A stretch of DNA of 64,000 nt from Planctomycetota bacterium (GTDB lineage Bacteria > Planctomycetota > Phycisphaerae > WQYP01): NCBI GenBank assembly GCA_021852275.1, contig JAJZNX010000025.1, forward strand, positions 621-64,620. The letters run 5' to 3'. How positions within the stretch are numbered: the first letter of the stretch is position 1; each line of letters begins with the position of its first letter. The notes below the pieces were generated by a model. It was not told the DNA's origin. It ran no database searches and saw only the letters and a list, made by a program, of their open reading frames with translations. Below are positions 21,691 through 62,309 of the stretch, one piece after another. The translations under genes were made by a program, and so were the position numbers.

Positions 21691-21776
21691 TGTATAAATT
21701 ATAAAAAAGCTGGTGACGCCCGGTTTTATAGGAAAATTGCGTCAAGAGCCGTCTCCGCATATTCTTTATTCAAGTC

Positions 21777-21850
21777 GCGCTCGTAGCTCAGTTGGATAGA
21801 GCGGCGGTTTCCTAAACCGCAGGTCGCAGGTTCGATCCCTGTCGGGCGCA
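21777..21850 (+). tRNA. tRNA-Arg (anticodon CCT)
   Basis: 74 nt, folded by hand as a cloverleaf. Acceptor GCGCTCG/CGGGCGC, anticodon loop TTCCTAA, T-loop TTCGATC. Confidence 0.9.
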
Positions 21851-21864
21851 TCAGACCGGCCAGT

Positions 21865-22290
21865 TCATCCGATCATGGCGGTAGCTTCAATTTCAATCAT
21901 TGCCGCCTCATCAATGAGGTTGCTCACTTCCACCGTGACTGTGGCAGGCCGGATTTCTCCGAACATTTCTCCATGCACTGTGGCCACCTTCTCCCAATCC
22001 TTGATATGCCGCAGGTACATGCGAGTACTGACGACATCCGCTACTGAAGCTCCCAGCACCTCGAGGGCACTTTGAATAATGGCCAGCGATCTGCGGGTTT
22101 GCTGGGCTACATCCGGGGAGTATGTTTTATCTGGGTTGATGCCCACGCATCCACTGACAAATATCAGATTTCCCTTTTTCACTGCCCGACTGTAGCCGAT
22201 TTTTGGCTCCCACGCACTGCCGGAACTAACGGTTAATTTTCCAGCACGTTCTACCAGGGTAAATGGTGATTTTTGATGGTTATGAGCCAT
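21865..22290 (-). CDS. ridA: RidA/YjgF/TdcF family reactive-intermediate deaminase
   Basis: 141 aa. The pattern YSRAVKKGNLIFVSG ... ADVVSTRMYL ... RPATVTVEVSNL...IEIEATA is typical of the family. Confidence 0.8.
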   Translation of the reverse strand: MAHNHQKSPFTLVERAGKLTVSSGSAWEPKIGYSRAVKKGNLIFVSGCVGINPDKTYSPDVAQQTRRSLAIIQSALEVLGASVADVVSTRMYLRHIKDWEKVATVHGEMFGEIRPATVTVEVSNLIDEAAMIEIEATAMIG

Positions 22291-22634
22291 GTTAAAATCC
22301 TTTGTCTTGGGTCCAGGTTACAAAGTAATTTTGGTACTAAGGAACCGGGCAAAAATAACTTCGCACTTTTCGGCTGGCCCTTTTGGCCTCCAGCTTCGTT
22401 GTTCGCTCGTTTCAGACCCACTGCCGGGGTATGCACCTCACTCACGCCTCGCTGGCGGCCAAAATTTCTGCGCCGTAAAACACGAATTTATTTTTGCGCG
22501 GTTCCTAATCGTATCAATTATCCAGAAAATTGCATCAATATACACGCATCGAAGAAGTCCTGCACACTCCATATCAGCGCATGTCCGGTCGCCTGGTCGC
22601 TTGGGTTGCGGTGGAGAGCGACTATAATAGGCAT

Positions 22635-25939: not shown

Positions 25940-26012
25940 GAGGCCGTAGCTCAGCTGGTAGAGCAACAGACTTTTAATCTGTGGGTCCTGGGTTCGATCC
26001 CCAGCGGCCTCA
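25940..26012 (+). tRNA. tRNA-Lys (anticodon TTT)
   Basis: 73 nt. Acceptor GAGGCCG/CGGCCTC, anticodon loop CTTTTAA, T-loop TTCGATC. Confidence 0.9.
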
Positions 26013-26111
26013 TTAACCCCCCGGGGCTGTCCAGGCCGGTTTGGCGGGCAAGATAGCTGGAATCGGCGGGGGTTTCCCGTGTGACAGCGCGTTGAGTAAA
26101 ATACCTTTGTT

Positions 26112-27101
26112 ATGAGAAAGCATTATCCGCTTCTGGATTTAAGCACGTACATTGCTGCCCGCTGGGCCGCGATGATGCTCGGTTTTTTCCCGTTAAACGC
26201 CAACCTGCTTACAGCCAAGGCTTTTGGATCGTTGCTCTGGACCATGGATCGGCGACACCGGAATATGGCCATTGATCATATTGGTCGCAGCTTTCCAAAT
26301 TTTTCCCAGCAACAGGCGCAGCAGATCGCCCTGCGTTCGATGCAGCATTTTTGCCAGCTCGGGATTGATGTTATGTTTACTACCCGCACCATCAACGTGC
26401 AGCGGTGGCATCAATTCGTGCATTTCCAGGAAAACCTGCGTGAGACCATCCGGATCACGATGGAAAATCGCGGAGCTATCATGCTTACGGGCCATTACGG
26501 CAACTGGGAAGTGCTGGGCTACACCATGGCCACGCTGGGGCTGCGCAGTTATTCGGTGGCCCGCCCCATCGATAACCCGCACGTCGATACCTGGCTGCTG
26601 GGAGTGCGTCAGCGCAAGGGACAAATTATTCTTTCCAAGCGCGGCGTTACCACCACGGCCGAGGAGGTGCTGGAAAACAAGGGAATTCTGGGTTTTATTG
26701 CGGATCAAAACGCCGGACCGAAAGGAATGTTTGTGCCATTTTTTGGTCGCCTGGCCAGCACGTATAAAAGCATCGGTCTTTTGGCGATTCGCCATCGAGT
26801 TCCGGTGATTGTGGGCTGTGCCCGGCGGCGCGGCGACCGTTTTGAGTTTGATATTGATATTGCAGATATTATACGGCCAGAAGACTGGCATCATCAGGCT
26901 GATGAGCTTCGCTACATTACCGAGCGTTACACGATGGGCATAGAAAAAATGGTAAGGCAAGATCCGACCCAATACCTGTGGATTCATCGGAGGTGGAAAA
27001 CGCGCCCCAAAGGGGAAACCCAGACTGATGGACCGGCGCAACCGACAGAACGCGAAGCTTTTATTATGCCAAACTCGCCGGCGGTGGGTCCACCACCATA
27101 A
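26112..27101 (+). CDS. lysophospholipid / lipid A lauroyl-type acyltransferase (LpxL/HtrB family)
   Basis: 329 aa. An N-terminal TM segment, the HX4-type motif TGHYGNWE, and FIADQNAGPKGMFVPFFG, typical of the family. Confidence 0.75.
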   Translation: MRKHYPLLDLSTYIAARWAAMMLGFFPLNANLLTAKAFGSLLWTMDRRHRNMAIDHIGRSFPNFSQQQAQQIALRSMQHFCQLGIDVMFTTRTINVQRWHQFVHFQENLRETIRITMENRGAIMLTGHYGNWEVLGYTMATLGLRSYSVARPIDNPHVDTWLLGVRQRKGQIILSKRGVTTTAEEVLENKGILGFIADQNAGPKGMFVPFFGRLASTYKSIGLLAIRHRVPVIVGCARRRGDRFEFDIDIADIIRPEDWHHQADELRYITERYTMGIEKMVRQDPTQYLWIHRRWKTRPKGETQTDGPAQPTEREAFIMPNSPAVGPPP

Positions 27102-30593: not shown

Positions 30594-31370
30594 TTATTGT
30601 AACGTTCTTCCATCCGACGGACGAGCCGCTTCCGCACGAGCAGGCGCTGGGCCAAACAAGGCCGTACCGATGCGGACCATGGTGGCCCCCTCTTCGATGG
30701 CGACCTGATAATCGCCGCTCATGCCCATGGAAAGATGACAGAATTGCGGACCGGCAATTTTATGAAATCTGATTTCCTCAAATAGTTCCCGCAGGCGTGC
30801 AAACGCTGGACGTGAATCCTCTGGATTGGCTGTTTGTCGGGCCAAGGTCATCAAGCCCACCATGGAAAGGTTGGCCATGGTTTCAATTTGTTCCGCCAGA
30901 TGAATAGCGGCCGGCAGAGCAATGCCGTACTTGCTTTCTTCTCCGGTGGTGTTGACCTGTAACATCATCTGGGCGGGTTCCTCACGACGAGCGGCAAGTT
31001 CGTTAATTTCTTCGGCCAGCCGCAGAGAATCCACACTATGAATGTAGTCCGCCAAGGATAGAGTCTGCAAGACCTTGTTGCGTTGCAAGTGACCAATCAT
31101 GTGCCATGTCACGTTAGCCGGGCGCGGCCGACTGGGATTCACGGCGGTCTGCTGGCGCCAATTGTAAATTTGTTCCACATGAGCCTGCAATTGCTGGGTA
31201 CGGTTGTCGGCCAGATGAGTTTGGCCCGCTAGAATCAGTTCCTCTATCTGAGCCGGTAACGCATTTTTTACGACGGCCACCAGTTTAATTTCATCAGGAC
31301 TGCGTCGGACTCGCGCGGCTGCAGCGGCAATCTGTTCTTTCACAGCTTGCAGATTGGCGACTAAATTCAT
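30594..31370 (-). CDS. yggS: YggS-family pyridoxal-phosphate homeostasis protein
   Basis: 258 aa. The pattern LVAVVKN...HMIGHLQRNKV...LSMGMSGDYQVAIEEGATMVRIG is typical of YggS. Confidence 0.85.
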   Translation of the reverse strand: MNLVANLQAVKEQIAAAAARVRRSPDEIKLVAVVKNALPAQIEELILAGQTHLADNRTQQLQAHVEQIYNWRQQTAVNPSRPRPANVTWHMIGHLQRNKVLQTLSLADYIHSVDSLRLAEEINELAARREEPAQMMLQVNTTGEESKYGIALPAAIHLAEQIETMANLSMVGLMTLARQTANPEDSRPAFARLRELFEEIRFHKIAGPQFCHLSMGMSGDYQVAIEEGATMVRIGTALFGPAPARAEAARPSDGRTLQ

Positions 31371-31546
31371 AAAACTTGTCCTGCCCGGCGAAAACTCGAA
31401 CCTCCATGAATTATCTGCGCACCGGCGTTTCTGTAAAGAAGGCCCACACGGTGGAGCATGGCTAGCGGCTCAGGCGTGGCGTTGAAGTGATCGCTGGATG
31501 GTTGCCGATAAAAATTCTTTGTCGACTGCTCTGGGTCGACCACCTG

Positions 31547-31574
31547 TTGTATGCCAGCCAAAATGGTGTATAAT
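31547..31574 (+). promoter_or_regulatory. candidate sigma70 promoter for tRNA-Gly
   Basis: TTGTAT (31547-31552), a 16-nt spacer, then TATAAT (31569-31574), 16 nt upstream of the tRNA 5' end. Confidence 0.4.
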
Positions 31575-31590
31575 TTCGACCGATTCGTCT

Positions 31591-31662
31591 GCGGGCGTAG
31601 CTCAGTGGTAGAGCGTCACGTTGCCAACGTGAATGTCGAGGGTTCAAATCCCTTCGCCCGCT
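31591..31662 (+). tRNA. tRNA-Gly (anticodon GCC)
   Basis: 72 nt. Acceptor GCGGGCG/CGCCCGC, anticodon loop TTGCCAA, T-loop TTCAAAT. Confidence 0.9.
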
Positions 31663-32154
31663 TTGTTGGCCGAAAACAGGCCACTATCCTCCTTTGCCGC
31701 ACCACATGATATTATATCCTTACCGTACTTTCGTGGCGTTTGGCCGATTGGGAATCGTAGCAATGACCGATATCAAGGCAATCCCGGCATCTTATTACCC
31801 ATGACACCACCGGAATCGGCATTCGACGGCGAAAATATCCGGAAATTTACATCGACACTCAACTGGTCCGACATTTGCTTTACTCTTTTCTAGCGGTCGC
31901 AGAGATACCGCCTGAAAAATGCGGCAACCAACCCATAAACGAGTTGGATCGTATCAATATCAGTCGCAGTCGCTTGGGAAGGTGACGTCTGATGCACTCG
32001 ATGCGGATTGGTGCCGACCAGGTAAACAAGCTCGCGAGAGTACAGACCCACTATAAAAAAAGGAAGTTATTTTCTTGCATTGACCGATGAAAGACGTTAT
32101 GAATTTACATAGAGCACTGAACCGAGTCCTTTTTTTTTAGAAGGAGTGTTCGTT

Positions 32155-42476: not shown

Positions 42477-42656
42477 TAGCCATCGAACCAACCTTATAAA
42501 ACCGATGCGGTATTTTGCATTCCCACTCCCTGTTCTTGATATGGGTCATCCCCCCCCCGGAAGCTCGGAAGGCAAAGAAATTTTCGACAATTTCACGCCG
42601 ACCGGCAAACCGGTTACAATCTTTGATTCGTTTGAGGCAAGAAGGAGCCTATATCA

Positions 42657-45548
42657 ATGACCTCCAGTCGGATACGCCGTGAATTCATCGATTTTTTCGT
42701 GCAGCGCCATGGGCATAAATTTGTCCCATCCAGCCCGGTGGTTCCACATGACGACGCAACGTTGCTGTTTGCCAATGCGGGGATGAACCAGTTTAAGCCG
42801 TTTTTTTTGGGAACGGCTAAGACCAAGGCTACGCGTGTGGCCAATACGCAAAAGTGTATTCGTGCCGGTGGCAAACATAATGACCTGGACGATGTGGGCA
42901 TTTCTCGTCGCCACCACACCTTTTTTGAGATGCTGGGGAACTGGAGTTTCGGCGACTATTTTAAGCAAGGCGCCATTGAAATGGCGTGGGAGTTGTTGAC
43001 CAAGGTGTGGCACCTGGATCCTCGCCGATTGCATGTAACGGTTTACAAAGGCAATCCAGCCGATGGCGTACCAGCCGATGATGAAGCGGCGGAGTTATGG
43101 CGGCGAATCGCCGGCCTTCCCGAGAATCATATCCATCGGTTCGTGGATGAAAATTTCTGGGAAATGGGAGAAACCGGACCCTGTGGACCTTGCACAGAAA
43201 TTTTTATTGACCGTACGCCTGATTTTTCGGGCGGATCACAGGTGAATGGGACCGATCCCCGCGTGATGGAAATCTGGAATCTGGTTTTCATTCAGTACAA
43301 TCGACAGGAAGGCCGTAAGCTTACCCCCCTGCCGCAACGGCACGTGGACACTGGCATGGGACTGGAGCGAATATGCCAGGTGCTGGGCGGATTCTCGGAC
43401 AATTATGCAACAGATCTGTTCACCCCGCTTTTTGCAGCCATTGCGGATATAAGCGGACATCATTATCATGGCACGTTTCCGGCGACGGATGCCAACAGTC
43501 CGATGGAGGCGGAAAATAAAACGCTGTCCCGGGACATCGCCTTTCGCGTGATTGCTGATCACATTCGCGCCTTGACTTTTGCCCTTACAGATGGTGCCCT
43601 GCCTGGCAACGAAGGCCGTGGTTACGTATTACGACGAATATTGCGCCGTGCAGTGCGGTTTGGGCGGCAAAATCTGGGGCTGACTGAGCCGTTCCTGCAT
43701 CAATTGGTGCCGGTGGTATTGCATACCATGCAAACTGCGTTTCCGGAGCTGTCCAAAAATCCGGGGCATGTTGCGGACATCATCAAGAGCGAAGAAATCA
43801 GTTTCAGCCGCACGCTAGATCGCGGCATTGAGCTTTTTCAATTAGCGGCGGATGAGGCCCGCCGCAGCAACACGCAAAGCGTGATTTCCGCCGAGAATGC
43901 CTTTAAGCTTCACGATACATATGGATTTCCGATTGACTTGACGCAGGTGATGGCCCGTGAACAGGGAATGACGGTGGATGTGTCCGGATATGAGGTCCGC
44001 ATGGAAGAGGCACGGCAGAAAGCCCGTTCCGGAGGCAAAACCCCCGAAACTGCACTGACAGACTTGCCCCCGGATATTTTGGCCCGCCTTGCAGACGAGA
44101 ACGTACCGAAAACCGAAGATCGGGCTAAATATAAATCCGGCCCGATTAAGGCAACGGTAGCTGCGATATGGAATGGCCGTGAATTGGTGGATCATGTTTC
44201 CGCGGATACCGCCGACCAGGCTGCCTTAATTCTTGATCAAACTAATTTTTACGCGCAGATGGGTGGGCAAATTGGTGATACCGGCGACATTGCGTCGGAG
44301 CGGGGAAATTTTGCAGTGGAAACCACCCATGCGGTGGGCCGTTATATCCTGCATCGGGGCAAGTTAAAATCAGGCTGGTTGCAACGCGGCGATTCCGTTA
44401 CGTTGCAGGTCCACGCGAACCGCAGTCGCATCGAACAAAATCACACTGGCACGCACCTGGCCAATTGGGCTTTGCGGGAGGTGCTGGGTGAGCATGTGCA
44501 GCAGAAGGGATCCCTGGTGGATGCGGAGAAACTCCGCTTTGATTTCGTGCAGCCACAGCCGCCACCAGATGAACAGATACAACGCGTTGAGGAAATGGTA
44601 AATCAGGCCATTGGCCGGCGATTGCCGGTCTATACCGCCGAAGTTCCGCTGGAAACGGCCCGGCACATCTATTCGCTACGTGCCGTATTTGGCGAAAAAT
44701 ACCCGGAACAAGTGCGCGTGGTAAGCATTGGTGTACCGGTCGCAGAACTACTGGCCCAGCCAGACAACCGGCATTGGCGGAACTTTTCCATCGAATTCTG
44801 CGGCGGAACGCACTTGACGGATACCGGACAAGCTGGGGATTTTGTCATTGTTGCGGAAGAATCGGTCAGCAAGGGTATACGCCGCATCGTTGCTTATACA
44901 GGTGCGACCGCAGCGGCGGCCAGGAGCCTTGCGGTTCACATCGACAAATTGATCATCGCCGCGGAGCGCGCCACGGAAGATCAATTACCGACCGGTTTGA
45001 GCCAGCTCCAGCAGGCCCTTGGTGAAACAGGTGTTCCAGTAGTAGTCCGCCGCCGCGCACAATCGGTTATCCGCACATTGCAGGAAAAAATTAGAGAGCA
45101 GGCTAAACGTAGACAGGTTCCACCGCCATCCCATGTCGGCGACAGTTCGGACATGGATCAACTTTTGGCCGCCGCTGAACCGATTGGCCAGGTGGAATTA
45201 ATTGTCGCGGAGATGGGAGTGAAATCCGCCGATGAGCTACGCGCTACCATGGATGCGGTGAAAAAGAAGCGACCGCAAGGCTTGTTTGCTATTCTGTTGG
45301 GATCTACGGAGACCCCAAAGGATAAGCAAGGCAATGCTCTGCCGGCCAAAGTAAACCTGTTGGCCGCGGTCGGGGATCCGCTGATCGGTAAATTAAAAGC
45401 CGGTGATTGGATTCGCACTGTTGCACCGGTGGTAAGCGGCAGTGGCGGCGGCCGCCCTCAACTGGCCATGGCCGGAGGTAAACAAATCGACAAGCTCGGC
45501 GAGGCGCTGTCCACCGGGCGCGAATTTGCCCGCCAATGCCTGCAATAG
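42657..45548 (+). CDS. alaS: alanine--tRNA ligase
   Basis: 963 aa. IRREFIDFF..HGH..V.SS.V.P.DD.TLLF.NAGMNQFK and FEMLGNWSFGDYFK are present. The editing-domain HTGTH/CGGTH motifs are also present. Confidence 0.95.
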   Translation: MTSSRIRREFIDFFVQRHGHKFVPSSPVVPHDDATLLFANAGMNQFKPFFLGTAKTKATRVANTQKCIRAGGKHNDLDDVGISRRHHTFFEMLGNWSFGDYFKQGAIEMAWELLTKVWHLDPRRLHVTVYKGNPADGVPADDEAAELWRRIAGLPENHIHRFVDENFWEMGETGPCGPCTEIFIDRTPDFSGGSQVNGTDPRVMEIWNLVFIQYNRQEGRKLTPLPQRHVDTGMGLERICQVLGGFSDNYATDLFTPLFAAIADISGHHYHGTFPATDANSPMEAENKTLSRDIAFRVIADHIRALTFALTDGALPGNEGRGYVLRRILRRAVRFGRQNLGLTEPFLHQLVPVVLHTMQTAFPELSKNPGHVADIIKSEEISFSRTLDRGIELFQLAADEARRSNTQSVISAENAFKLHDTYGFPIDLTQVMAREQGMTVDVSGYEVRMEEARQKARSGGKTPETALTDLPPDILARLADENVPKTEDRAKYKSGPIKATVAAIWNGRELVDHVSADTADQAALILDQTNFYAQMGGQIGDTGDIASERGNFAVETTHAVGRYILHRGKLKSGWLQRGDSVTLQVHANRSRIEQNHTGTHLANWALREVLGEHVQQKGSLVDAEKLRFDFVQPQPPPDEQIQRVEEMVNQAIGRRLPVYTAEVPLETARHIYSLRAVFGEKYPEQVRVVSIGVPVAELLAQPDNRHWRNFSIEFCGGTHLTDTGQAGDFVIVAEESVSKGIRRIVAYTGATAAAARSLAVHIDKLIIAAERATEDQLPTGLSQLQQALGETGVPVVVRRRAQSVIRTLQEKIREQAKRRQVPPPSHVGDSSDMDQLLAAAEPIGQVELIVAEMGVKSADELRATMDAVKKKRPQGLFAILLGSTETPKDKQGNALPAKVNLLAAVGDPLIGKLKAGDWIRTVAPVVSGSGGGRPQLAMAGGKQIDKLGEALSTGREFARQCLQ

Positions 45549-50837: not shown

Positions 50838-52634
50838 GTGTCCATTAAACTTTCTGATTATGTTATCGACTTTCTTGCCCAGCGAGGCGTACGCCATGTG
50901 TTTTTTATTCCCGGCGGAGCCGCGATGCACCTGAACGATTCGCTGGGCCGATGCAAGCAAGTTGAATATGTGTGCAATCTGCATGAACAGGCCAGCGCCA
51001 TCTGCGCGGAGGCTTACGGCAAAATCACCAACAATATCGGTGTAGCCATGGTTACCGCCGGCCCCGGTGGCACGAATGCCATTACCGGCATTGCCGGGGC
51101 CTGGCTGGATTCCACACCCATGATGGTAATTTCCGGGCAAGTCAAGCGAGCAGACTTGAAACGGAACAGCAATGTTCGCATGTTGGGCGTGCAGGAAATC
51201 GACATTGTTACAATTGTCTCCAGCATCACCAAATATGCCGTGACTATTTTGGATCCGGCCACCATACGCTTTCATCTGGAGAAAGCCTTTCATCTGGCGA
51301 CTTCCGGCCGAAAAGGGCCGGTGTGGATCGATATCCCGCTGGATGTGCAAGCGGCGATGATTGAGCCGGCAACGCAAGAAGGTTTCAAACCGGAAACCCC
51401 GGTCAAATCAACTGTTCTTGCCCAGCAGGTTGCCGATCTGATCACTTTGTTAAGCACTGCCCACAGGCCGGTCATGCTGGTTGGTAACGGTGTTCGGCTG
51501 TCCGGAGCCATCCCGCAATTCCACGATCTACTCAGGTACGTTGAAATGCCGGTGTTGACGAGTTGGCTGGGTATGGATCTGATTGCTGATGACCATCCAC
51601 TGTTCATGGGCAGGCCGGGGTCACTAGCACCGCGCGGAGCCAACTTTACCCTGCAAAATTCTGATTTACTGCTGGTGGTGGGATCCCGGCTTGATATGGC
51701 CATGACGGCTTATTCGCATGAGCATTTTGCCCGAGTCGCTGTAAAAATTATGGTCGATGTGGACATGGCAGAAATCGCCAAAATGAAAACCCCCATTGCC
51801 CTGCCCATTTGCACCGACGCCCGCGACTTTTTCGCGGAAGTTTTGCGCCAACTACCAAATCTTTCCCGCAGATCCTGGCCCGCCTGGACGCATCGCTGCC
51901 GGGAATGGAAGGCTCGCTATCCGCTAGTACTGCCCGAACATCGCGATTGTACAAAACCAATAAGTATGTATTGGTTTTCAGAGGTGTTATCAGAAGAAGC
52001 TGGTGAAAACGATGTTGTTGCTCCGGGCAGTTCGGGCTTCGCAGCGGAAATTTTTCTTTTGGGTTTCAAAGCCAAGTCAGGTCAGAGAATTTTCCATAAT
52101 CGTGGAACCGGATCCATGGGCTTTGGCCTTCCCGCGGCCATTGGCGCATGCTTGGCCAGCGGCAGGAGAAGAACGATTTGCGTGGAAGGTGATGGCGGTT
52201 TCCAGATGAATGTACAGGAACTTGCCACCGTCGCCAGACTCCAGTTGCCAACTAAGTATTTTGTCATCAACAACAACGGCTTTGCTTCCATTCGGACATC
52301 CCAGCGTGTGTATTTCAAGCAGTTGGTAGGAGCAGACCAAACCAGCGGATTGACCTTGCCAGACATTACCAAAGTGGCGAAGGCGTATGGAATTGCGACG
52401 CTTCGGATTGACGACTCAGCGCGACTGCGGACAGGTATACGGGAGGCTTTATCTTTGCCAGGCCCTGTTGTAGTTGAGGTACTTGTGGCACCGGATGAAG
52501 AGCGTATTCCCCGAGTTGTTTCGATGCAGCAGCTCGGCGGTACGATGGTTTCCAAGCCACTGGAAGACCTTTACCCGTTTCTGGAGCGAGATGAATTCAT
52601 GGCGAACATGCTTATTCCCCCTGTGGTGGAATAG
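50838..52634 (+). CDS. thiamine-diphosphate-dependent enzyme, acetolactate-synthase large-subunit-like
   Basis: 598 aa with a GTG start. GGAAMHLND, TAGPGGTNAITGIAGAW.DS.P and the ThDP motif GDGGFQMN..ELAT......INNNG are present. Confidence 0.85.
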   Translation: MSIKLSDYVIDFLAQRGVRHVFFIPGGAAMHLNDSLGRCKQVEYVCNLHEQASAICAEAYGKITNNIGVAMVTAGPGGTNAITGIAGAWLDSTPMMVISGQVKRADLKRNSNVRMLGVQEIDIVTIVSSITKYAVTILDPATIRFHLEKAFHLATSGRKGPVWIDIPLDVQAAMIEPATQEGFKPETPVKSTVLAQQVADLITLLSTAHRPVMLVGNGVRLSGAIPQFHDLLRYVEMPVLTSWLGMDLIADDHPLFMGRPGSLAPRGANFTLQNSDLLLVVGSRLDMAMTAYSHEHFARVAVKIMVDVDMAEIAKMKTPIALPICTDARDFFAEVLRQLPNLSRRSWPAWTHRCREWKARYPLVLPEHRDCTKPISMYWFSEVLSEEAGENDVVAPGSSGFAAEIFLLGFKAKSGQRIFHNRGTGSMGFGLPAAIGACLASGRRRTICVEGDGGFQMNVQELATVARLQLPTKYFVINNNGFASIRTSQRVYFKQLVGADQTSGLTLPDITKVAKAYGIATLRIDDSARLRTGIREALSLPGPVVVEVLVAPDEERIPRVVSMQQLGGTMVSKPLEDLYPFLERDEFMANMLIPPVVE

Positions 52635-52661
52635 GATGGTTTTACAAATTTGGAGCTGGTC

Positions 52662-53501
52662 ATGACACTGTTGGGTATCATGCAAGGGAGGTTATTGCCC
52701 CCCATAGCTGAACGTATCCAGTGTTTTCCGCGAGGCCGCTGGCAGGAAGAATTTTCACTCGCTGCTCAGATAAAACTCGACGCCATCGAGTGGATTTACG
52801 ATGCCTACGGGGCGGATGACAATCCGCTTGGCACGGATGCTGGAATATCGTTTATGATGGCTCTCTCGCAACAGCACCAAATTCAGGTCAAGTCCCTTTG
52901 TGCAGACTGGTTTATGGATTTCCCACTGGTTCGTGCAACCGCTGAGCAAACCAGGGAGCGGACGCGCCAGTTGAGCTGGTTGTTAGGCCAATGTCAAAAA
53001 GCGGGCATCCGGCGGGTGGTGTTGCCCTTTGTGGATTACTCAAAGATTACCGATGAGCAGGATACACAGACCGTCCTTGCTGTTCTGCATAGCATTTTGC
53101 CCGTTGCCGAAAATCTGGCCATAGAAATACATCTGGAAACCTCACTTCCTCCAGCCTCTTTTGCTGATCTGCTGGCCCATATTCCACATCCGCTCATCAA
53201 GGTCAACTACGATTCTGGCAATAGCGCAGCGCTAGGGTATGATATGCAAGAGGAGTTTGTCGCGTATGGTAAACGAATTGGCAGTGTGCATCTCAAGGAT
53301 CGCCGGCTTCATGGAGGGACGGTGCCGTTGGGAACTGGCAATGCGGATTTTACGGCACTTTTTGAATGCCTGAACGCATTCCAGTACGTCGGCGACTTTA
53401 TCTTGCAGGTGGCTCGCGGTACCGCTGGGGATGAAATGGCTTGGATCACGCGCAACATAGCGATACTGAAGCCTCACCTTCAGCTTTGGCTTGAAAACTG
53501 A
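52662..53501 (+). CDS. sugar-phosphate isomerase/epimerase (xylose-isomerase-like TIM barrel)
   Basis: ATG at 52662 with GGAG 6 nt upstream. The family pattern includes IEIHLE and NYDSGN. Assigned by overall resemblance. Confidence 0.6.
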   Translation: MTLLGIMQGRLLPPIAERIQCFPRGRWQEEFSLAAQIKLDAIEWIYDAYGADDNPLGTDAGISFMMALSQQHQIQVKSLCADWFMDFPLVRATAEQTRERTRQLSWLLGQCQKAGIRRVVLPFVDYSKITDEQDTQTVLAVLHSILPVAENLAIEIHLETSLPPASFADLLAHIPHPLIKVNYDSGNSAALGYDMQEEFVAYGKRIGSVHLKDRRLHGGTVPLGTGNADFTALFECLNAFQYVGDFILQVARGTAGDEMAWITRNIAILKPHLQLWLEN

Positions 53502-53508
53502 GAAAAGC

Positions 53509-54285
53509 ATGGATCTGAACCTGACCAACCAAGTGGCGTTTGTGGCCGGTTCTTCGCGGGGAATTGGCAAAGCAATTGCAGAGAGATTTTTGCTGGAAGG
53601 ATGCCGCACCGTTATTACCGGCCGAACGGTAGAGGACATCAAGAGAGTCCATGCAGAGTTTACACAACGCTTCGGCTGCGATCGCCTGATGGCTTTGCCC
53701 GGTGATTTGACAGACTTAAGTACAATCCGGCATGCCGTCCTGCAAGTGCAATCAAAATGGGGTGATATCGATTGCGCCGTGGCAAACATTGGGACCGGCC
53801 GAGGTCAGTCCGGCTGGGATATCAGCGATTCGCAGTGGACTGAAATTTTTCAGATGAACCTATGGAGCAGCGTACGGCTTATTCCGGAAATTCTGGCGCC
53901 AATGGTTCGTCGTCAATGCGGAAGTGTGGTATTCATTTCCTCCATTACCGGAATGGAAACCACTGCCGCTCCACTGCCATACAGCGCCGCCAAAGCGGCT
54001 CTACTGAATTATGCCAAGAACCTGGCCAGGCAGGTTGGTCCATATCATGTGCGCGTAAATTCCGTGGCACCTGGAAATATATTATTTCCAGGAGGCTCAT
54101 GGGATCGGCGTAAAACCGATAATCCCCAGACTGTTGCTGACTATATTAATGCCGAGGTGCCGTTGCGGCGTTTCGGCAGGCCGGAAGAAATTGCTGATCT
54201 TGTAGTTTTTCTTTCCTCCGATCGCGCCAGCTTTATCACTGGTTCCTGCGTTGTGGCCGACGGTGGCCAGACTCGCAGCATCTGA
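53509..54285 (+). CDS. short-chain dehydrogenase/reductase (FabG-like)
   Basis: VAFVAGSSRGIGKAIA (TGxxxGIG), YSAAKAA (YxxxK) and PGNILFPG are present. Confidence 0.85.
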   Translation: MDLNLTNQVAFVAGSSRGIGKAIAERFLLEGCRTVITGRTVEDIKRVHAEFTQRFGCDRLMALPGDLTDLSTIRHAVLQVQSKWGDIDCAVANIGTGRGQSGWDISDSQWTEIFQMNLWSSVRLIPEILAPMVRRQCGSVVFISSITGMETTAAPLPYSAAKAALLNYAKNLARQVGPYHVRVNSVAPGNILFPGGSWDRRKTDNPQTVADYINAEVPLRRFGRPEEIADLVVFLSSDRASFITGSCVVADGGQTRSI

Positions 54286-54301
54286 ACGTGGAGAATCCAT
54301 C

Positions 54302-55159
54302 ATGCCACGCAGAAATTCCTCCAATAAATCATCGGCATTGGCCAGCCAATTTGATTTAACCGGGCGCACCGCCATCATCACCGGAGGTGCGGGACTGCTT
54401 GGCAGGCAGCACGCTCAGGCCATCGCCAGTGCCGGCGGCGTTCCCGTGATCGTGGATCTCGCCACGGCCCAGCCTGCCAGGCAGGCTGCCAAAGTAGCAC
54501 GCGATTGGAAAGTCTCAGCCATGGGAGTGGTGGCGGATATCACCGATGCCACTCAGGTGAAAAACCTGGCGGCCACCGTGTTGAAACGTTTTGGACGAGT
54601 GGATATTTTAATCAATAACGCCGCCAATAACCCCAAGGTTGAAGATGCCAGCAAAACACCATGGAGTCGATTGGAAGACTTCCCATTGGCAATTTGGCAA
54701 GCCGATCTGGCCGTAAGCCTCACTGGGGCGTTTTTATGCAGCCGCGAGTTTGGATCGTTAATGGCCCGCCAAGGCAAAGGCGTCATTATCAACGTCGCTT
54801 CGGATCTGGCAATCATCGCGCCAGACCAACGGCTTTACCGGCGCAAAGGCGTTCCCAACAACCGGCAACCGGTAAAACCCGTAACCTACTCCGTTGTAAA
54901 ATCCGGCCTGCTCGGGTTAACGCGATATCTGGCCACCTATTGGGCGGACCGTGGGGTACGGGCCAACGCCCTCTCGCCGGGAGGAATTTTTAATGGGCAA
55001 TCCGATGAATTTGTGAAGCGACTCAAAAATCTCATACCCATGGGCCGCATGGCCAGACTGACCGAATATCAAGCGGCGATGATATTTTTGTGCTCCGATG
55101 CCTCGTCATACATGAATGGGGCAAATTTGGTTATCGATGGCGGAAGGAGTTGCTGGTGA
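54302..55159 (+). CDS. short-chain dehydrogenase/reductase
   Basis: ATG at 54302. AIITGGAGLLGRQHA, NNAA and YSVVKSG (YxxxK) are present. Confidence 0.8.
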   Translation: MPRRNSSNKSSALASQFDLTGRTAIITGGAGLLGRQHAQAIASAGGVPVIVDLATAQPARQAAKVARDWKVSAMGVVADITDATQVKNLAATVLKRFGRVDILINNAANNPKVEDASKTPWSRLEDFPLAIWQADLAVSLTGAFLCSREFGSLMARQGKGVIINVASDLAIIAPDQRLYRRKGVPNNRQPVKPVTYSVVKSGLLGLTRYLATYWADRGVRANALSPGGIFNGQSDEFVKRLKNLIPMGRMARLTEYQAAMIFLCSDASSYMNGANLVIDGGRSCW

Positions 55160-55995
55160 ATTTTAACGCCAATACCCTTTTTTCTCTCACGGGTAAAACA
55201 GTGCTCCTCACCGGAGCGTCAGGATTTCTGGGCCGAACCATGGCCGAAGCCATACTGGCAAATGGTGGACGCCTGGTAGCCCTGGGACGTTCCGAGCGAT
55301 TGCAAGAGCTATGCCGACAATGGACTGCCACTTTTGGCCCGCAGCAAGTCATCAGTCACAGAATCGACATGCACGACCATAGCAAGCTTTCATCGCTGCT
55401 TGATCATATTGTCCAACAGGAAGGCTTTATTGAAGTCCTGATCAACAATGCCCATGAGCTAGGTTCTTCCACCGGATTCAACACGCCAATGGGATCGATC
55501 GAAAACAGTAATCCCGATCAATGGGCACGGAACTTTGCCGGCGGCGTGCACTGGCCTGTGCTATTGGCTCAAAAACTCGCACCGGCCATGAAAGCTCATC
55601 ACCGTGGCAGTATCATCAATATAGCTACGATGTATGCCGTGGTTGCACCAAACCCACACTTGTACGAGGGAACGACGTTTCTTAATCCACCAGCATACGG
55701 TGCCGCCAAGGCGGCGATGCTGGCCTTAACCCGGTACATGGCCTCTTTTTGGGGAACCGCTGGAATTCGCGCCAACGCTATCTTACCAGGCCCCTTCTCG
55801 AATACCCAGGATTCCGGGCCTAACAGTGTCAAAAACGATGATGCTTTTCTTGATCGGTTACGGGTTCGAACATGCCTGGGCCGGGTTGGCCAACCCGCGG
55901 AACTTGCCGGCGCAACCCTGTTTCTTGCGTCAGATGCATCCTCCTATGTAACCGGGCATGCCTTGGTCGTCGACGGTGGGTGGACCATTACCTGA
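55156..55995 (+). CDS. short-chain dehydrogenase/reductase
   Basis: The GTG at 55156 overlaps the upstream stop (GTGA), with GGAAGGAG upstream. VLLTGASGFLGR, NNAH and YGAAKAA (YxxxK) are present. Confidence 0.8.
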   Translation: MNFNANTLFSLTGKTVLLTGASGFLGRTMAEAILANGGRLVALGRSERLQELCRQWTATFGPQQVISHRIDMHDHSKLSSLLDHIVQQEGFIEVLINNAHELGSSTGFNTPMGSIENSNPDQWARNFAGGVHWPVLLAQKLAPAMKAHHRGSIINIATMYAVVAPNPHLYEGTTFLNPPAYGAAKAAMLALTRYMASFWGTAGIRANAILPGPFSNTQDSGPNSVKNDDAFLDRLRVRTCLGRVGQPAELAGATLFLASDASSYVTGHALVVDGGWTIT

Positions 55996-56081
55996 ATATA
56001 CCCACAACTGTTATTCTCAATTTGCCCCGACAACAATATGAGTAACATTATCAACGAATAGTCAATGATCGGAATGTGTGC

Positions 56082-56570
56082 ATGGCTACTTATACGCTCA
56101 AATCCGAGTCTATCTCGGCCGTCATCTTTGATTTCGACGGGGTATTTACGGACAATAAAGTTTACGTCTTTGAAGATGGCCGCGAGGCCGTAGCCTGTAA
56201 TCGTTCCGATGGTTACGGCATCAGTATGCTACGTAAAACCAACATCCCCCTGCTGGTTCTTTCCGCGGAAGAAAACCCGGTGGTGGCCGCACGCTGCCGC
56301 AAGCTTTCCATTGAATGTATCCACGGCGTAAAAGATAAACTCCCCGCATTGCGGCAATGGCTTGTTGAGCAAGCCGTGGACATTCGACATACGGCTTATG
56401 TGGGTAATGATTTAAACGATTTAGCCTGTATGCAGGCGGTGGGCTTTCCCATTGCCGTAGCAGATGCCTATCCGCAAATCAAGACTGTGGCCAAACTGGT
56501 GCTCAAGGCCAACGGTGGCCATGGGGCCGTGCGCGAAGTTTGCGATCTGATTCTCGCCGGCTACAGGTGA
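56082..56570 (+). CDS. HAD-IIIA phosphatase, KdsC (3-deoxy-ulosonate phosphate phosphatase) family
   Basis: AVIFDFDGVFTDN (DxDG), SDGYGISMLR and VGNDLNDL match the KdsC/YrbI pattern along the full 160-aa length. Confidence 0.8.
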   Translation: MATYTLKSESISAVIFDFDGVFTDNKVYVFEDGREAVACNRSDGYGISMLRKTNIPLLVLSAEENPVVAARCRKLSIECIHGVKDKLPALRQWLVEQAVDIRHTAYVGNDLNDLACMQAVGFPIAVADAYPQIKTVAKLVLKANGGHGAVREVCDLILAGYR

Positions 56571-56944: not shown

Positions 56945-57904
56945 ATGGATAACCGTATCGAATGCGAGCTACTTATGAAACATATCAGCATACTCACCCC
57001 CTGCTACAACGAAGAAGCCAACGTCCGCGAAATGTATGAAGCTGTTAAGAAGGTATTTTCATGTTCATACCAATACACTTATGACCATTTGTTCATTGAT
57101 AACGCCTCCAAAGATAAAACACCGGTCATTTTGAGGGAAATTGCGGCACAGGACAAGAACGTCAAAGTTATTTTTAACACGCGTAACTTTGGCCATATCC
57201 GCTCCCCCTATCATGGGCTGCTGCAAACAGCCGGCGATGCAACCATCGGACTGGCGTGCGATTTTCAAGACCCGCCGGAACTTATCCCGCAGTTTCTGGA
57301 ACACTGGGAACGTGGCTTTAAGGTAGTGCTTGGTGTTAAAGCCGCATCAGACGAATCGGCCGTGATGTTCGCGTGCCGCAGCGCGTATTATAATCTCATC
57401 AACCGGCTCGCAGAGGTCAACCTCGTGAAAGGAGCCACTGGGTTTGGCCTATACGATCGTACAGTAGTCGAAGCATTAAGGCATATCGACGATCCTTATC
57501 CATACTTTCGTGGGCTGCTATCCGACATCGGGTACGAAACCGCCACCATCGCGTATCACCAGCCTGCCCGTCGCCACGGTCTGACAAAAAATAATTTTTA
57601 CACACTTTACGACTTGGCCATGCTTGGCATTACCAACCATTCCAAAGTTCCGCTGCGCCTGGCCACGATGGCTGGATTCGCAATGTCCGCCATAAGCCTG
57701 CTGGTGGCATTGGGATATTTTATCGCCAAACTTGTCAATTGGAATCATTTCACGCTGGGCATGGCTCCGGTGATTATCGGCCTGTTCTTTTTTTCTTCTG
57801 TGCAACTCTTTTTTATCGGGATTCTGGGCGAATATATCGGGGCCATTCACACGCAAGTACAAAAGCGTCCGCTGGTGATCGAAAGGGAGCGGCTGAATTT
57901 TTAG
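56945..57904 (+). CDS. GT2 glycosyltransferase with two C-terminal TM helices (polyprenol-phosphate sugar transferase, ArnC/GtrB/DPM1-like)
   Basis: ISILTPCYNEE.NV, FIDNASKDKT and the CDFQDPPE (DxD-like) motif are present. Two C-terminal hydrophobic helices. An alternative start is at 56975. Confidence 0.85.
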   Translation: MDNRIECELLMKHISILTPCYNEEANVREMYEAVKKVFSCSYQYTYDHLFIDNASKDKTPVILREIAAQDKNVKVIFNTRNFGHIRSPYHGLLQTAGDATIGLACDFQDPPELIPQFLEHWERGFKVVLGVKAASDESAVMFACRSAYYNLINRLAEVNLVKGATGFGLYDRTVVEALRHIDDPYPYFRGLLSDIGYETATIAYHQPARRHGLTKNNFYTLYDLAMLGITNHSKVPLRLATMAGFAMSAISLLVALGYFIAKLVNWNHFTLGMAPVIIGLFFFSSVQLFFIGILGEYIGAIHTQVQKRPLVIERERLNF

Positions 57905-57918
57905 ATTCAGCCGCTCAA

Positions 57919-59211
57919 CTACCCGCTGCTCACCCCCGGCTGCTGGCGTGCAGCCGGGTTCGAAAACTTTCCACGTAGCACCCAATACGCACCCAGCATG
58001 CTCCAACAGAGTGGCAAAAACCGCAGCGCCTGCGCCAGTGCAAACGCCTGGTTCACAGTATCTATTCCATGCGTTACAAAAAAGAAAAGCAGCAATGAAT
58101 CCAATACGCCCAAGCCCATCGGCGGTAGAATCGGCACGCTCACCGCCAGCGCCACTACTGGTAAACATACCAGGTACCAATCGAACGGTGCCTGCATGGC
58201 CAGCGCACGACCAATGTACCAACCTGCAAGCGGAGTAATACCCTGCGACAACAGGCTTACCGCAAACAAAACGCCCATCAGGCCTGAATGGCTCCGGTAG
58301 CGCTGCAGCGTTCCATGGGCATGTTTGATAAACGTCGGTAGCGGCAGCCAACCCAGCATGGATTCAATTCTTAGAAAACGTCGCAACGGCCGATGCAAAT
58401 AAAAAAGTGCGGCAATCCCGGTGGCTAACAGCAAACCTGTAATAATCCACCAGACACGGATGAGAAGCGAATGGGTCCATGCCGCGGGGCCTTTCCAAAC
58501 GCCGGCATCCAGAATCAGCAGTGCAGTGGTTGTGAGCAGCGCCAGCACCAGCAATGCCACCAGCCCAACCACGCGGTCCAGCACAATTGATACCGCGCTG
58601 CCGGTGGTATTACCCGTGGCTTTTCCGGTATAAACTATCTTTACCACATCCCCACTGACTGATCCGGGAAGAAATGCAGAATAAAATTGCCCCACAAAGG
58701 TGAGCCTTAGACACTGCCCATACGACACCTCCGGAGTTTGTACCGTCAACAGTTTCCACCAACGCCATGCAGTGATAAATGTCGGCAACCCCAATAATCC
58801 AAGAGCCATAAGCAAGGGCCACCAATGGGCAGAAAATATGAGTCCCGGCAGGCCGCGGCGTATTTCTACCATACCGCCTAACGACACCAGGCATTGACGG
58901 GGAATCGTAATTACGGCAGGCCAACTCAAGGGCGCACGATCCGGTACGCCATCTACCACCAGGCCGGAAGCTAATCGCACTCGCAGCCGTTGCTGCCCCA
59001 CAGCCACTTGAGCTATGTTGTTGCCGAGGTGCAGGAGGCGAATCGGAACCTCTCGCAACACCACCACACCACGAATTATGCTTCCAGGCTGCAAAAACAC
59101 CTGATTGTGCCAGGTAATCTGCCTGGTAACGTACCACAGTCCGACTAACGCAACCATCAACTTGAGCACCAGTACCGATGCTCTTCGCCAGCGATGCTTT
59201 TGTGGTACCAT
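57919..59211 (-). CDS. multi-pass membrane protein, flippase-like / LPG-synthase-TM (UPF0104) family
   Basis: 430 aa. Basic N-terminus followed by about 8 TM segments. The insert between TM1 and TM2 is typical of this family. Assigned by architecture. Confidence 0.6.
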   Translation of the reverse strand: MVPQKHRWRRASVLVLKLMVALVGLWYVTRQITWHNQVFLQPGSIIRGVVVLREVPIRLLHLGNNIAQVAVGQQRLRVRLASGLVVDGVPDRAPLSWPAVITIPRQCLVSLGGMVEIRRGLPGLIFSAHWWPLLMALGLLGLPTFITAWRWWKLLTVQTPEVSYGQCLRLTFVGQFYSAFLPGSVSGDVVKIVYTGKATGNTTGSAVSIVLDRVVGLVALLVLALLTTTALLILDAGVWKGPAAWTHSLLIRVWWIITGLLLATGIAALFYLHRPLRRFLRIESMLGWLPLPTFIKHAHGTLQRYRSHSGLMGVLFAVSLLSQGITPLAGWYIGRALAMQAPFDWYLVCLPVVALAVSVPILPPMGLGVLDSLLLFFFVTHGIDTVNQAFALAQALRFLPLCWSMLGAYWVLRGKFSNPAARQQPGVSSG

Positions 59212-59497: not shown

Positions 59498-59929
59498 TTA
59501 CGTGCCCATACCGCGCTGATGTAATTTTATCACCGTATTCGAAAGTCGCATCTGTTGTTTTATCTGCTTGAAGATTTCTTCCTGATACATCCAGGAGGAG
59601 ATCAGAATAGGCTCCGAGCGACCATGCAATTCCGTCGGAGCTAAAATTCGTCGACCTGCAATACGCCTGCTGCGAATTCGTTCGCTCGAGTCTACAAAAG
59701 CCGCAATTTGGTCAACTCGCAGCAAGCCGGCCGCCAACAACCGGTGGGTCAGAGAGCCTACGCCCCAGATGATGAGTTTTTTTCCACGACGCGCCGCCTG
59801 GTCAATGATTCGACATACTCGTCGGTCCGCGACTCTAGATGCAGCGACGTATCGTTGCAGTGCGTGCTGGCAGTGCTGGTCCCTGCTCACCTTCACCCCC
59901 CCCCCCCTGCCTGTCGGTACAAACCGCAC
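59498..59929 (-). CDS. C-terminal domain of a sugar C-methyltransferase (separate ORF only because of the G12 tract)
   Basis: KKLIIWGVGSLTHRLLAAGLL...IAAFVDSSERIRSRRIAGRRILAPTEL...PILISSWMYQEEI follows the TylCIII-type C-terminal domain pattern. Confidence 0.55.
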   Translation of the reverse strand: MRFVPTGRGGGVKVSRDQHCQHALQRYVAASRVADRRVCRIIDQAARRGKKLIIWGVGSLTHRLLAAGLLRVDQIAAFVDSSERIRSRRIAGRRILAPTELHGRSEPILISSWMYQEEIFKQIKQQMRLSNTVIKLHQRGMGT

Positions 59930-60747
59930 ACGATGGGTTCGGTGGTTTTGATTCCCTGCTTGCGCATAAAGCGCAGGTGTGCCAGTTGCTCAAATCCTAC
60001 CACCGCCATCAGATTGCGAAGAGAAGACGCGGTGAAAAAATTGATATGCTCTGTACTGAATTGCTGAAATGGGGCATTGCGCGAAGCCGCCAGCCCCATC
60101 GCATCGGGAACGGCCAAAAACAGACGCCCACCGGGAGTAAGCCTGTTCACGATGTTTTGCAGAGCACGTCTGACATCCCGTATGTGTTCCAGCACACCCG
60201 CTAGAATAATCAGGTCAAATTGGCCGCTTTGGCAGCCAAGATCAAAAACAGTTCCCGTCGCAACCGGAATCTGGTATAAACGAGCGGCAACTTTTGCACA
60301 TGCAGGCGATGGATCCAGACCGTGGAGATTCTTAAAACCGTGGCGGCCAAGCACATGAAGAAATGCACCCGTTGCGCAACCAACATCCAAGATGGCCCCG
60401 TTACGGTCTATATCTGATTTGCAGATAAAATTTGCCAGACGCTCGAAGGTTCTCATATCGCTGGCGGACACCTGACCATTATGATGACTGTATTCATATT
60501 TGGAGAACTGGCGGTAGTAACGATTGAAATCCGACTGCTGCGGGATCAAATCTGCATAGGCAGCGCCGCAATGGTTACATGTTACAACATGATATCCTGT
60601 CAACAAAGCAGACCCCATGAAATATTGCTTAAAAATCAAACGTCGCCCAGATGACTGGCATATCGGACACTTACGATGCGACTCCGACAATCTCAACCGT
60701 TTCTGCCTTTGACCCGGCTTCATAAAGGCACCTCCTTTTCGCGGCAT
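59893..60747 (-). CDS. class I SAM-dependent methyltransferase with an N-terminal zinc ribbon (N-terminal two domains of a TylCIII-like NDP-hexose C-methyltransferase)
   Basis: CPICQS...CNHCGAAY is the zinc ribbon. ILDVGCATGAFL is SAM motif I, followed by DLIILAGVLEHI and LTPGGRLFLAVPD. The ORF stops immediately after G12. Confidence 0.8.
   Translation of the reverse strand: MPRKGGAFMKPGQRQKRLRLSESHRKCPICQSSGRRLIFKQYFMGSALLTGYHVVTCNHCGAAYADLIPQQSDFNRYYRQFSKYEYSHHNGQVSASDMRTFERLANFICKSDIDRNGAILDVGCATGAFLHVLGRHGFKNLHGLDPSPACAKVAARLYQIPVATGTVFDLGCQSGQFDLIILAGVLEHIRDVRRALQNIVNRLTPGGRLFLAVPDAMGLAASRNAPFQQFSTEHINFFTASSLRNLMAVVGFEQLAHLRFMRKQGIKTTEPIVCGLYRQAGGGG
59896..59907. repeat. homopolymer C12 (G12 on the coding strand) at the junction of the two methyltransferase ORFs
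   Basis: Counted directly: ttca + 12 c + tgc. Confidence 0.95.
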
Positions 60748-60941: not shown

Positions 60942-62309
60942 TTAACTTGTGGCTTCTACCCCCAACTGCATCTCTCCAAACACCCGGCACGGCATGGCAT
61001 AGCTCGCCACAAACAAAAGCAAAAGCAGTAATGTCAACGCCTTAAACTGCCCGGCAAAGCTAACCCGGCCATTGAGCACCATATAACATTGCTGCGGTGT
61101 AAACAAAATTGCGCAAGCAGTTAAAATTGCCAGTATTTTCCATAATTGAAAATTCACCCGCCCGGAATAGACTTCTTCCAACAGAAAAAAGAGCACAAAC
61201 ATCGTCCATGGTATATACATGTACAATAACGTATAATCAAACGATACACCCGGAGCCAGCACCTGAACGATAAACACCGCAAAAACACAGTTTAAAATCG
61301 GCATTCGCCGGAAATGCCATACCATCACCACCATCGCAATCAGCCAGGCCATGGTATATACGTGGTACCACATGCCGATCATCGTCAGGAGGCTGCCAAA
61401 GCGAGTTCCATTGACATACCCCCCCCAGGCAAGTACCTGTTTCACCACTGAAAACAGTGAATGATCTACACCAATGCCAGCCGGACTGAAAGTTAGAACA
61501 TAGGTATTTTGAAATACTTTTATTCCCCGCCCGATGGAATGGAGCACCTGCGCAATATGTGGAGCCGCAAACCACATCGCCACAAAATTAATCGCAAAAA
61601 ATGCCACCACAAACGTCCAAGCGCCTCTCCAGTCCCGCCTTCTTAAAAATAAAAAAATTAGAATCAACGGAGCCAGCTTCATCGCGGCCACACATCCCCA
61701 AAATATGGCCGCAATACGCCCATAATTTTTGACAAATGCCCACGCCCCCACCAGCGCCATCACCCATGCCGCACCCTCCACATTGGCTCGATCCGCCATA
61801 AACATCAGCGGATAGGACGTCATCAGCATCAAACCCAAAATGGCCGCCACGGGGGCCACCAGTTGATGCTTTCGCACTGACCACACCAGTAAACCTGCCG
61901 CCAGAACCGCAATTCCAACAATGGTGGTATCAAAAGCCAGGGCCGCCGCTATGGCACTTTTTGGAAAAAGCCGAAAATAAAGCAAATACACATACGCATC
62001 TGGCGCGGGGTAATTCATATTGTGATGGCCATGCCAGAACCTGGGCGTACCAAACGACTGAAACTTATGATAAAATTGCGTAAAATCTGATAGACGCATG
62101 CTCGGCGCAAAAACAATGCTGTTAAATGGAAATGGCCACGGCTTATCTATTTGCGTGTGCCAATACACCAGCAAATATGCCACAATCGCCAAACCGGTCA
62201 GCACGGTTACGTACCAAAATAAGCCACGAAAAACCAACTGCCGTCCCGCTGCCGCTGCCACCGGATCTGGTTGCAGCAACGGTTGAATATCGCCGGCGTT
62301 CTGACTCAC
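60942..62309 (-). CDS. polytopic membrane protein, GT-C-type glycosyltransferase candidate (DUF2029 / GT87-like)
   Basis: 455 aa with at least 10 hydrophobic segments. The aromatic-rich first loop is typical of polyprenol-phosphate-sugar-dependent GT-C enzymes. An O-antigen polymerase-like role cannot be excluded. Confidence 0.5.
   Translation of the reverse strand: MSQNAGDIQPLLQPDPVAAAAGRQLVFRGLFWYVTVLTGLAIVAYLLVYWHTQIDKPWPFPFNSIVFAPSMRLSDFTQFYHKFQSFGTPRFWHGHHNMNYPAPDAYVYLLYFRLFPKSAIAAALAFDTTIVGIAVLAAGLLVWSVRKHQLVAPVAAILGLMLMTSYPLMFMADRANVEGAAWVMALVGAWAFVKNYGRIAAIFWGCVAAMKLAPLILIFLFLRRRDWRGAWTFVVAFFAINFVAMWFAAPHIAQVLHSIGRGIKVFQNTYVLTFSPAGIGVDHSLFSVVKQVLAWGGYVNGTRFGSLLTMIGMWYHVYTMAWLIAMVVMVWHFRRMPILNCVFAVFIVQVLAPGVSFDYTLLYMYIPWTMFVLFFLLEEVYSGRVNFQLWKILAILTACAILFTPQQCYMVLNGRVSFAGQFKALTLLLLLLFVASYAMPCRVFGEMQLGVEATS

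Follow-up and report, generated by a model that had tools for sequence, protein, structure and literature searches.

Poly-G tracts in capsule and lipooligosaccharide (LOS) modification genes are classical contingency loci, with examples in Campylobacter, Neisseria and Haemophilus. The gtr-type operons for O-antigen modification, which encode the flippase GtrA, the family 2 glycosyltransferase (GT2) GtrB and the GT-C protein GtrC, are also phase-variable, in Salmonella through Dam and OxyR. In host-adapted pathogens, the on/off switching of glycan-modifying enzymes by repeats is textbook knowledge, but it has rarely been documented in free-living environmental bacteria. Described examples include the phase-variable poly-G/C glycan-modification genes of Campylobacter jejuni, e.g., Cj1295 (PMC3068675; reviewed in PMC8355987), and microevolution at homopolymeric tracts has been reported in clonal bacteria, namely Bordetella pertussis (PMC1891110) and the Mycobacterium tuberculosis complex (PMC10334774). 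Here we describe a predicted sugar C-methyltransferase gene that is interrupted by a run of 12 G's in a planctomycete from acid mine drainage. The gene lies in the window, i.e., the whole 64,000-nucleotide stretch that was analyzed, from contig C85 (JAJZNX010000025.1) of a metagenome-assembled genome (MAG; 214 contigs, 3.58 Mb, 82% complete). Assemblies of otherwise identical DNA differ in the length of this run, which is probably an on/off tract that is mostly ON in nature.

Read directly from the sequence, the tract is C12 on the plus strand at 59896-59907 and thus G12 on the coding minus strand, which reads ...CAG GCA GGG GGG GGG GGG TGA with the stop codon abutting the run. A first-pass annotation, made by a model from the sequence alone, had described an open reading frame (ORF) of 284 amino acids (aa) that ends right after 12 G's, followed by an ORF in another frame with the C-terminal domain of C-methyltransferases. 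Both descriptions agree with our reading. ORF A (59893-60747, minus strand, 284 aa) ends in ...YRQAGGGG, and its TGA at 59895-59893 follows the tract without a gap. ORF B, 143 aa on the same strand (59498-59929), is shifted to the -1 frame with respect to ORF A, spans the tract, reads ...GRGGGVKVSRDQ... and on its own matches PF08484 with 26.4 bits (cutoff 23.5). When the two are joined in silico from the upstream ATG, G13 gives 416 aa and G10 gives 415 aa, matching the predicted fusion of about 416 aa. The real start is probably M9, as a Shine-Dalgarno sequence, AAGGAGG at 60737-60731, sits 7 nt 5' of the second ATG (60723), and the public gene calls agree; the truncated form is then 276 aa and the intact form 407 aa. 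G10 and G13 are in frame, while G11 and G12 are out of frame. G11 gives a product of 295 aa with 19 foreign residues past the tract, and G12 gives 276 aa with an immediate stop. The parts of the gene are as follows.

59896..59907, minus strand: poly-G tract (G12 in the MAG), encoding a run of Gly in the linker that joins the methyltransferase core to the C-terminal domain
59893..60723, minus strand: truncated G12 product of 276 aa, with zinc ribbon CPIC...CNHC and class I S-adenosylmethionine (SAM) methyltransferase core (Methyltransf_23, 1e-28; public gene call P0125)
59498..59895, minus strand: coding region of the C-terminal Rossmann-like domain (WGVG...FVDSS...; PF08484), in the -1 frame in the MAG and contiguous in the G10 allele

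The DNA of the window occurs in mine-drainage metagenomes, and four per-sample Logan assemblies of one study (X1-X4) were compared with it. Data of a similar kind may be those of a study of MAGs from AMD sediment (PMC9948709), which used HiSeq 2500 and per-sample metaSPAdes. Variation in tract length, as predicted in the first-pass annotation, was found at the level of assemblies, with G10, G11 and G12 on otherwise identical DNA. G10, i.e., a run two bases shorter than in the window, was present in the Logan contigs of three of the four samples (depths 11, 27 and 4), in a 90.8-kb ENA contig and, via an identical protein, in an NCBI record. At the DNA level it was seen in L013, L014, L015 and L017, and also in sample X4. 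G11 was found in one NCBI metagenome contig (JAEHJW030005759.1, L016), whose 295-aa product P0122 ends in ...AGGGGEGEQGPALPARTATIRRCI, and G12 in the MAG only. Apart from the tract, L013-L016 are identical to the window across 4.2-7.2 kb. The 90% protein cluster has six members, one of which is named 'Planctomycetia bacterium'. Contigs from ENA, Logan and NCBI, of up to 134 kb, carry its 407-aa form, and the MAG product is 276 aa. The three alleles probably occur side by side in one population, clonal at this locus in all other respects, and ON (G10) is the common natural state. OFF as the typical state is not borne out, as G10 is commoner in the samples and the MAG carries a rare OFF allele. 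Words of the gene were absent from the RNA runs of the same study.

Sample X3 (depth ~20) gave a different kind of evidence. Here one contig stops at 59905 and the next starts at 59898, with ten C's on each. In a de Bruijn graph with k=31, unitigs stop at this place when G10 and a longer allele coexist. The contig ends in X3 therefore suggest that G10 and a longer allele are mixed in one sample.

In the Pfam scan, ORF A matched Methyltransf_23 (1e-28), and the PF08484 score was 23.3-23.4 bits for the full protein and 22.9-29.2 bits for three relatives. The same scan gave no match of the protein to PF08421 (Methyltransf_13, N-terminal), and PF22674 (C2185-like_N), which appears in precomputed family annotations, had no match in the local Pfam scan. 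A sequence search returned hundreds of ~400-aa proteins with the same layout, including named records from Terriglobales, Vicinamibacterales, Chloroflexi and Nostoc; one homologue (P0011) is fused to GtrA. In a 48-member family alignment the four Cys of CPIC and CNHC, the LEH motif, an EH pair and WGxG are invariant, as are Y291, W319, G320, G322 and P362 of the C-terminal domain.

The AlphaFold2 model of the intact G10 protein has a predicted local distance difference test score (pLDDT) of 93.2 and a predicted template modelling score (pTM) of 0.91. In a Foldseek search of the PDB with it, TcaB9, KijD1 and MtmC take all of the first 18 places (410-428 aligned columns, TM 0.63-0.70, E ~1e-21), whereas generic methyltransferases rank after them (1e-10, half the length). 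The C-terminal domain is folded in the model and can be aligned to that of TcaB9 and KijD1. In the HMMER alignment to TcaB9, LEH lies opposite CHI, and EH opposite EH. E179/H180 and E225/H226 are invariant in the 48 members, with H180 falling on TcaB9 H181 and E225/H226 on E224/H225, while the counterpart of TcaB9 Y76 was assigned from spacing alone. Identity to TcaB9, KijD1 and MtmC is 15-17%. From the model and these alignments, the intact protein has the three-domain fold and the likely active site of nucleoside diphosphate (NDP)-hexose C-3 methyltransferases. This agrees with the earlier assignment to three-domain enzymes of the TylCIII type and of normal size, for which the pLDDT of 93, the full-length coverage of the top 18 PDB matches and the sugar-gene surroundings all speak. 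Methylation would then be on carbon, putatively of an NDP-4-keto-hexose, to which the context adds neighbors from sugar pathways.

We propose that slipped-strand mispairing during replication adds or removes G's in the run. G10 would give the 407-aa enzyme (ON), while with G11 and G12 translation would end 0-19 codons past the tract, before the conserved C-terminal domain is made (OFF). The short forms are probably inactive, because they lack the domain that carries family-invariant residues and matches the C-domain of solved relatives. In OFF cells the glycan sugar would lack its methyl group, or synthesis of that branch would come to a halt, and the outcome would be heterogeneity of the surface glycan in the population. 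We consider it likely that the polymorphism in tract length is real and biological, and if it is, an ON/OFF effect on the enzyme can be expected with good confidence. Because the full statement, a hypermutable on/off tract that is mostly ON in nature, combines these two parts, we hold it with moderate confidence.

Other G/C runs in the genome were surveyed as well. There are four runs of at least 12 where ~0.04 are expected (extrapolated from the decay of short runs), and 27 of at least 9 where ~5 are expected, so that chance does not account for the tract. In an indel survey of 119,640 bases of the MAG against the four sample assemblies, seven of seven indel sites fell in G/C runs of at least 7, which make up 139 bases or 0.12% of the sequence. 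The number of variable runs by length was as follows.

G/C runs, length 6: 0/30
G/C runs, length 7: 1/6
G/C runs, length 8: 1/2
G/C runs, length 9: 2/3
G/C runs, length 10: 2/3
G/C runs, length 12: 1/2
A/T runs, lengths 7-10: 0/42

The two ~20x samples differ from one another at several G/C runs and at no A/T run. Changes in G/C-run length are the main difference between samples in this near-clonal population. Since several other G/C runs of at least 7 vary likewise, the instability is general and not targeted to the methyltransferase gene. Among bona fide conserved genes, this gene has the longest such run.

Several of the variable runs affect reading frames. The only other G/C run of at least 10 in the window, which was said to break an ORF, does so: C10 at 19974-19983 (ORFs 19518-20523, minus strand) splits a Rep-like ORF, and C9 restores 334 aa. 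This run is C9 in X1 and X4, and C10 in X2, X3 and the MAG; the restored protein had no match in PHROGs. The C9 at 42550-42558, ~100 nt 5' of the ATG of a 963-aa ORF (42657-45548, plus strand), is C10 in X3 and C9 in X2 and the MAG; it may be a promoter or leader tract. A further C9 (L029, G000:C129:20001-40000, 10140-10148) is found in the ORF of a 577-aa helicase, which has a zinc-ribbon-like segment at its C-terminus. In a 21.6-kb X2 contig (depth 20) the run is C10 and the frame is shifted; X3 and the MAG have C9. In L023 (G000:C129) at 10756-10763, the MAG has C8 and a truncated frame of 206 aa, whereas all four samples have C9 and an ORF of 285 aa, for which no PHROG match was found. Most G/C runs of 9 within long ORFs keep the frame, which would not be expected of an assembly full of homopolymer errors. 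Rampant homopolymer error, as from long-read or flow chemistry, was considered and is unlikely in view of these in-frame runs and of the A/T runs, which never differ.

Five of the 27 G/C runs of at least 9 lie within ~200 bases of a contig end (C105:13-27, C133:7-18, C174:22-32, C202:178-187 and C40:199-207), which suggests that the MAG assembly tends to break at long G/C runs.

Some observations weigh against a hypermutable on/off tract. The allele lengths are those of assembled consensus sequences, and since contigs drop minority variants, the mixture within a sample rests on contig ends. Some of the G10 records may be one data set assembled twice, with S1, S2 and S4 certainly distinct. The MAG differs from all four samples at two short G/C runs (C8 against C9, C7 against C6), and its assembly may handle such runs poorly. 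The MAG, X2 and X3 agree at another C12 (C129:7559) and at a G10 (C58:61197), i.e., length alone is no predictor of variation. The remaining variable runs lie between genes or in ORFs that resemble those of mobile elements. Finally, MutS (MutS1) and MutL are present and intact, which gives no mutator background and rules out the mutator hypothesis that we had considered.

Part of this evidence fits a technical artefact, in which G10 is the only true length, and stutter in the library or the sequencing, together with the choices of the assembler, produced G11, G12 and the contig break. Homopolymers are a classic place for length miscalls, and the two departures of the MAG from all samples, together with several MAG contigs that end in long G/C runs, are what such an artefact would leave behind. 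When two words of the G12 stretch were sampled, no indexed run had both, which is a very weak sign in the same direction. However, a consensus that is two bases too long, in a contig extending tens of kb to either side, requires the error in most reads, and the consensus sequences show three different lengths. The disagreement of the two ~20x samples at several G/C runs, set against 42 A/T runs of 7-10 at which they never disagree, also speaks against the artefact, and so do the contig ends in X3, which branch at C10 on both sides when a poly-G read tail cannot give the downstream one. Plain assembly error is therefore unlikely as the cause of the length differences, and we give technical artefact as a whole a low, though not trivial, probability.

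The origin of the tract bears on whether selection maintains it. A sister strain (L018/L019), which belongs to the same 90%-identity cluster, has GGGGGGGTGG at the same codons, in frame, as G7-T-GG. Its codons are GCA GGG GGG GTG GTG GAG, compared to GCA GGG GGG GGG GTG AAG in the G10 allele. Because the sister strain carries a T between G7 and GG, we conclude from the alignment that one T>G change joined them into the run, and that the in-frame G10 is its ancestral length. In the congeners G003 and G002 the orthologues are intact (406 and 411 aa), RRAARMVKM and RRGFGPVKL replace the Gly run, and the linker has the length of that in the G10 form. The tract that was looked for at the same locus in related strains is thus absent from the sister strain and from both congeners, which counts against an evolved switch.

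In an evolved contingency locus, selection would keep the tract and hedge methylated against unmethylated glycan, e.g., under attack by phages or grazers. In gene class and position the tract resembles the classical poly-G switches of glycan-modification genes, both ON and OFF alleles are found on identical haplotypes, and G/C runs of at least 9 are about five-fold over-represented in the genome. On the other hand, the tract arose from one substitution and is specific to this lineage, the intergenic and mobile-element-like location of the other variable runs shows no preference for such genes, and we found no other surface-glycan gene that carries a long run. Additionally, ON dominates in the samples compared. 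The first-pass annotation had proposed a classical contingency locus; a tract that is one mutation old, one of several unstable G/C runs and mostly ON does not sustain that claim. An incidental young hypermutable site fits the evidence better than an evolved contingency locus, which we regard as quite unlikely.

Recoding would make the switch leaky or abolish it, as the G12 allele could still give a full-length product via a -1 slip of tRNA-Gly on the GGG before TGA, or via slippage of RNA polymerase. The stop directly after the run would allow perfect -1 re-pairing, the -1 frame is that of the downstream ORF, and long homopolymers are known slippage sites. Nevertheless, the run is not conserved in relatives, the usual allele is a plain in-frame G10, and the G11 allele would require the opposite shift. 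No stimulatory structure was seen, although no search was aimed at one. Recoding would add leakiness at most, and we consider it very improbable. A fixed pseudogene in decay, an alternative that the first-pass annotation had left standing and to which the split gene of the MAG might point, is ruled out for practical purposes because G10, G11 and G12 alleles occur on otherwise identical DNA: intact alleles with identical flanks dominate the other samples, both halves are 100% identical to the intact allele and carry no further lesions, and the downstream domain retains all family-invariant residues.

The main neighbors of the methyltransferase gene are listed below.

57919..59211, minus strand: LPG_synthase_TM family membrane protein, flippase-like, downstream (5e-28)
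56945..57904, plus strand: family 2 glycosyltransferase, convergent with the methyltransferase operon (1e-22)
60942..62309, minus strand: polytopic membrane protein, upstream, with a weak GT87 (GT-C-type) match below threshold (23.9 bits, cutoff 25)
50838..56570, plus strand: candidate sugar-precursor genes, namely a 598-aa thiamine diphosphate (ThDP) enzyme, a xylose-isomerase-like TIM barrel, three short-chain dehydrogenases and a HAD hydrolase

The flippase-like gene adjoins the methyltransferase in both congeners as well, where it is located upstream (L003 in G002, L002 in G003) and not downstream as in the window genome (57919-60747). GT2 is also found beside the orthologue in G003 and beside distant homologues. 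Three of the latter (Terriglobales, Nostoc and one further record; L031-L033) have a ~597-aa ThDP enzyme, an NDP-sugar dehydratase/epimerase and GT2 alongside, NeuB or a TIM barrel is found beside two of the three, and an FkbM-type methyltransferase is sometimes present. Judging from these neighbors, the gene probably belongs to a cluster for the synthesis of an unusual sugar and its transfer to a cell-surface glycan. The recurring neighborhood of ThDP enzyme, NeuB and GT2 points to an uncharacterised sugar pathway, possibly branched-chain or of the nonulosonic type.

Elsewhere in the window, around the Rep-like gene, an X1 contig joins 17653 to 22340 and omits 4,686 bases including that gene, with a supporting side of 20 bases. 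This skip may be the empty site or an excised form of a small integrated element. Three segments (21300-22630, ~25950-26600 and 31264-31927) have a word depth of up to ~1,200 compared to ~25 in the flanks, and many contigs link 31615 to 21821 via differing palindromic inserts of 15-18 bases, e.g., ATTGACTGTTAATCAAT. The high-depth segments look like a very abundant repeated element or array that is common to other members of the community.

For users of MAGs, these results mean that a gene split at a long G/C run may represent an allele of a polymorphism and not a pseudogene or an error. As the switch states are visible in natural samples, tract-length frequencies can be compared with phage load or site chemistry. 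The methyltransferase family, with ThDP-enzyme, NeuB and GT2 surroundings that are conserved across phyla, points to a sugar pathway that has yet to be characterised. In our literature search, no paper linking phase variation to Planctomycetota was found. It is improbable, in our judgment, that this free-living planctomycete of acid mine drainage, proficient in mismatch repair, exploits slippage in a G/C run to switch a methyl-branched surface sugar on and off at the level of the population. If it did, Planctomycetota would have their first described repeat-based contingency locus, observed in situ, and phage or grazer pressure would be suggested as a driver of pathogen-style phase variation in environmental bacteria.

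Compared to known systems, the enzyme itself is closest to TcaB9, KijD1 and MtmC (PDB 3NDI, 5T64 and 4RV9). It shares with them a length of ~410 aa, the three-domain fold and the four-Cys zinc site, and their active-site His and Glu-His are kept in the planctomycete protein. However, it is only 15-17% identical to them, has no PF08421 match and matches PF08484 at threshold. The setting also differs, as the three enzymes act in antibiotic sugar pathways whereas the planctomycete gene lies among cell-surface glycan genes. In its neighbors the locus resembles the gtr operons, which likewise combine a GT2 with flippase-like and GT-C-like membrane proteins, and which decorate the surface glycan in an on/off manner, as proposed here. 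The gtr switch is epigenetic (Dam/OxyR) and not a repeat, and these operons contain no methyltransferase.

The C. jejuni genes and the LOS loci of Neisseria and Haemophilus are alike in mechanism: they carry an intragenic G run of ~9-12 in the gene of a sugar-modifying enzyme, changes of 1-2 bases toggle the frame, and ON and OFF alleles occur in otherwise identical genomes. In contrast to these pathogens, the planctomycete is free-living and environmental with intact MutS and MutL, its tract is very young and located mid-gene in a domain linker, and its other surface genes do not have a set of similar tracts. In B. pertussis and the M. tuberculosis complex, as in the present near-clonal population, indels in G/C runs dominate the differences between samples and are found in assorted genes and intergenic sites; those cases come from isolates and reads, while ours comes from metagenome contigs of a few samples. 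Collectively, this probable repeat-mediated on/off polymorphism of a glycan-modifying enzyme is of a familiar type, and it is the host that is unusual.

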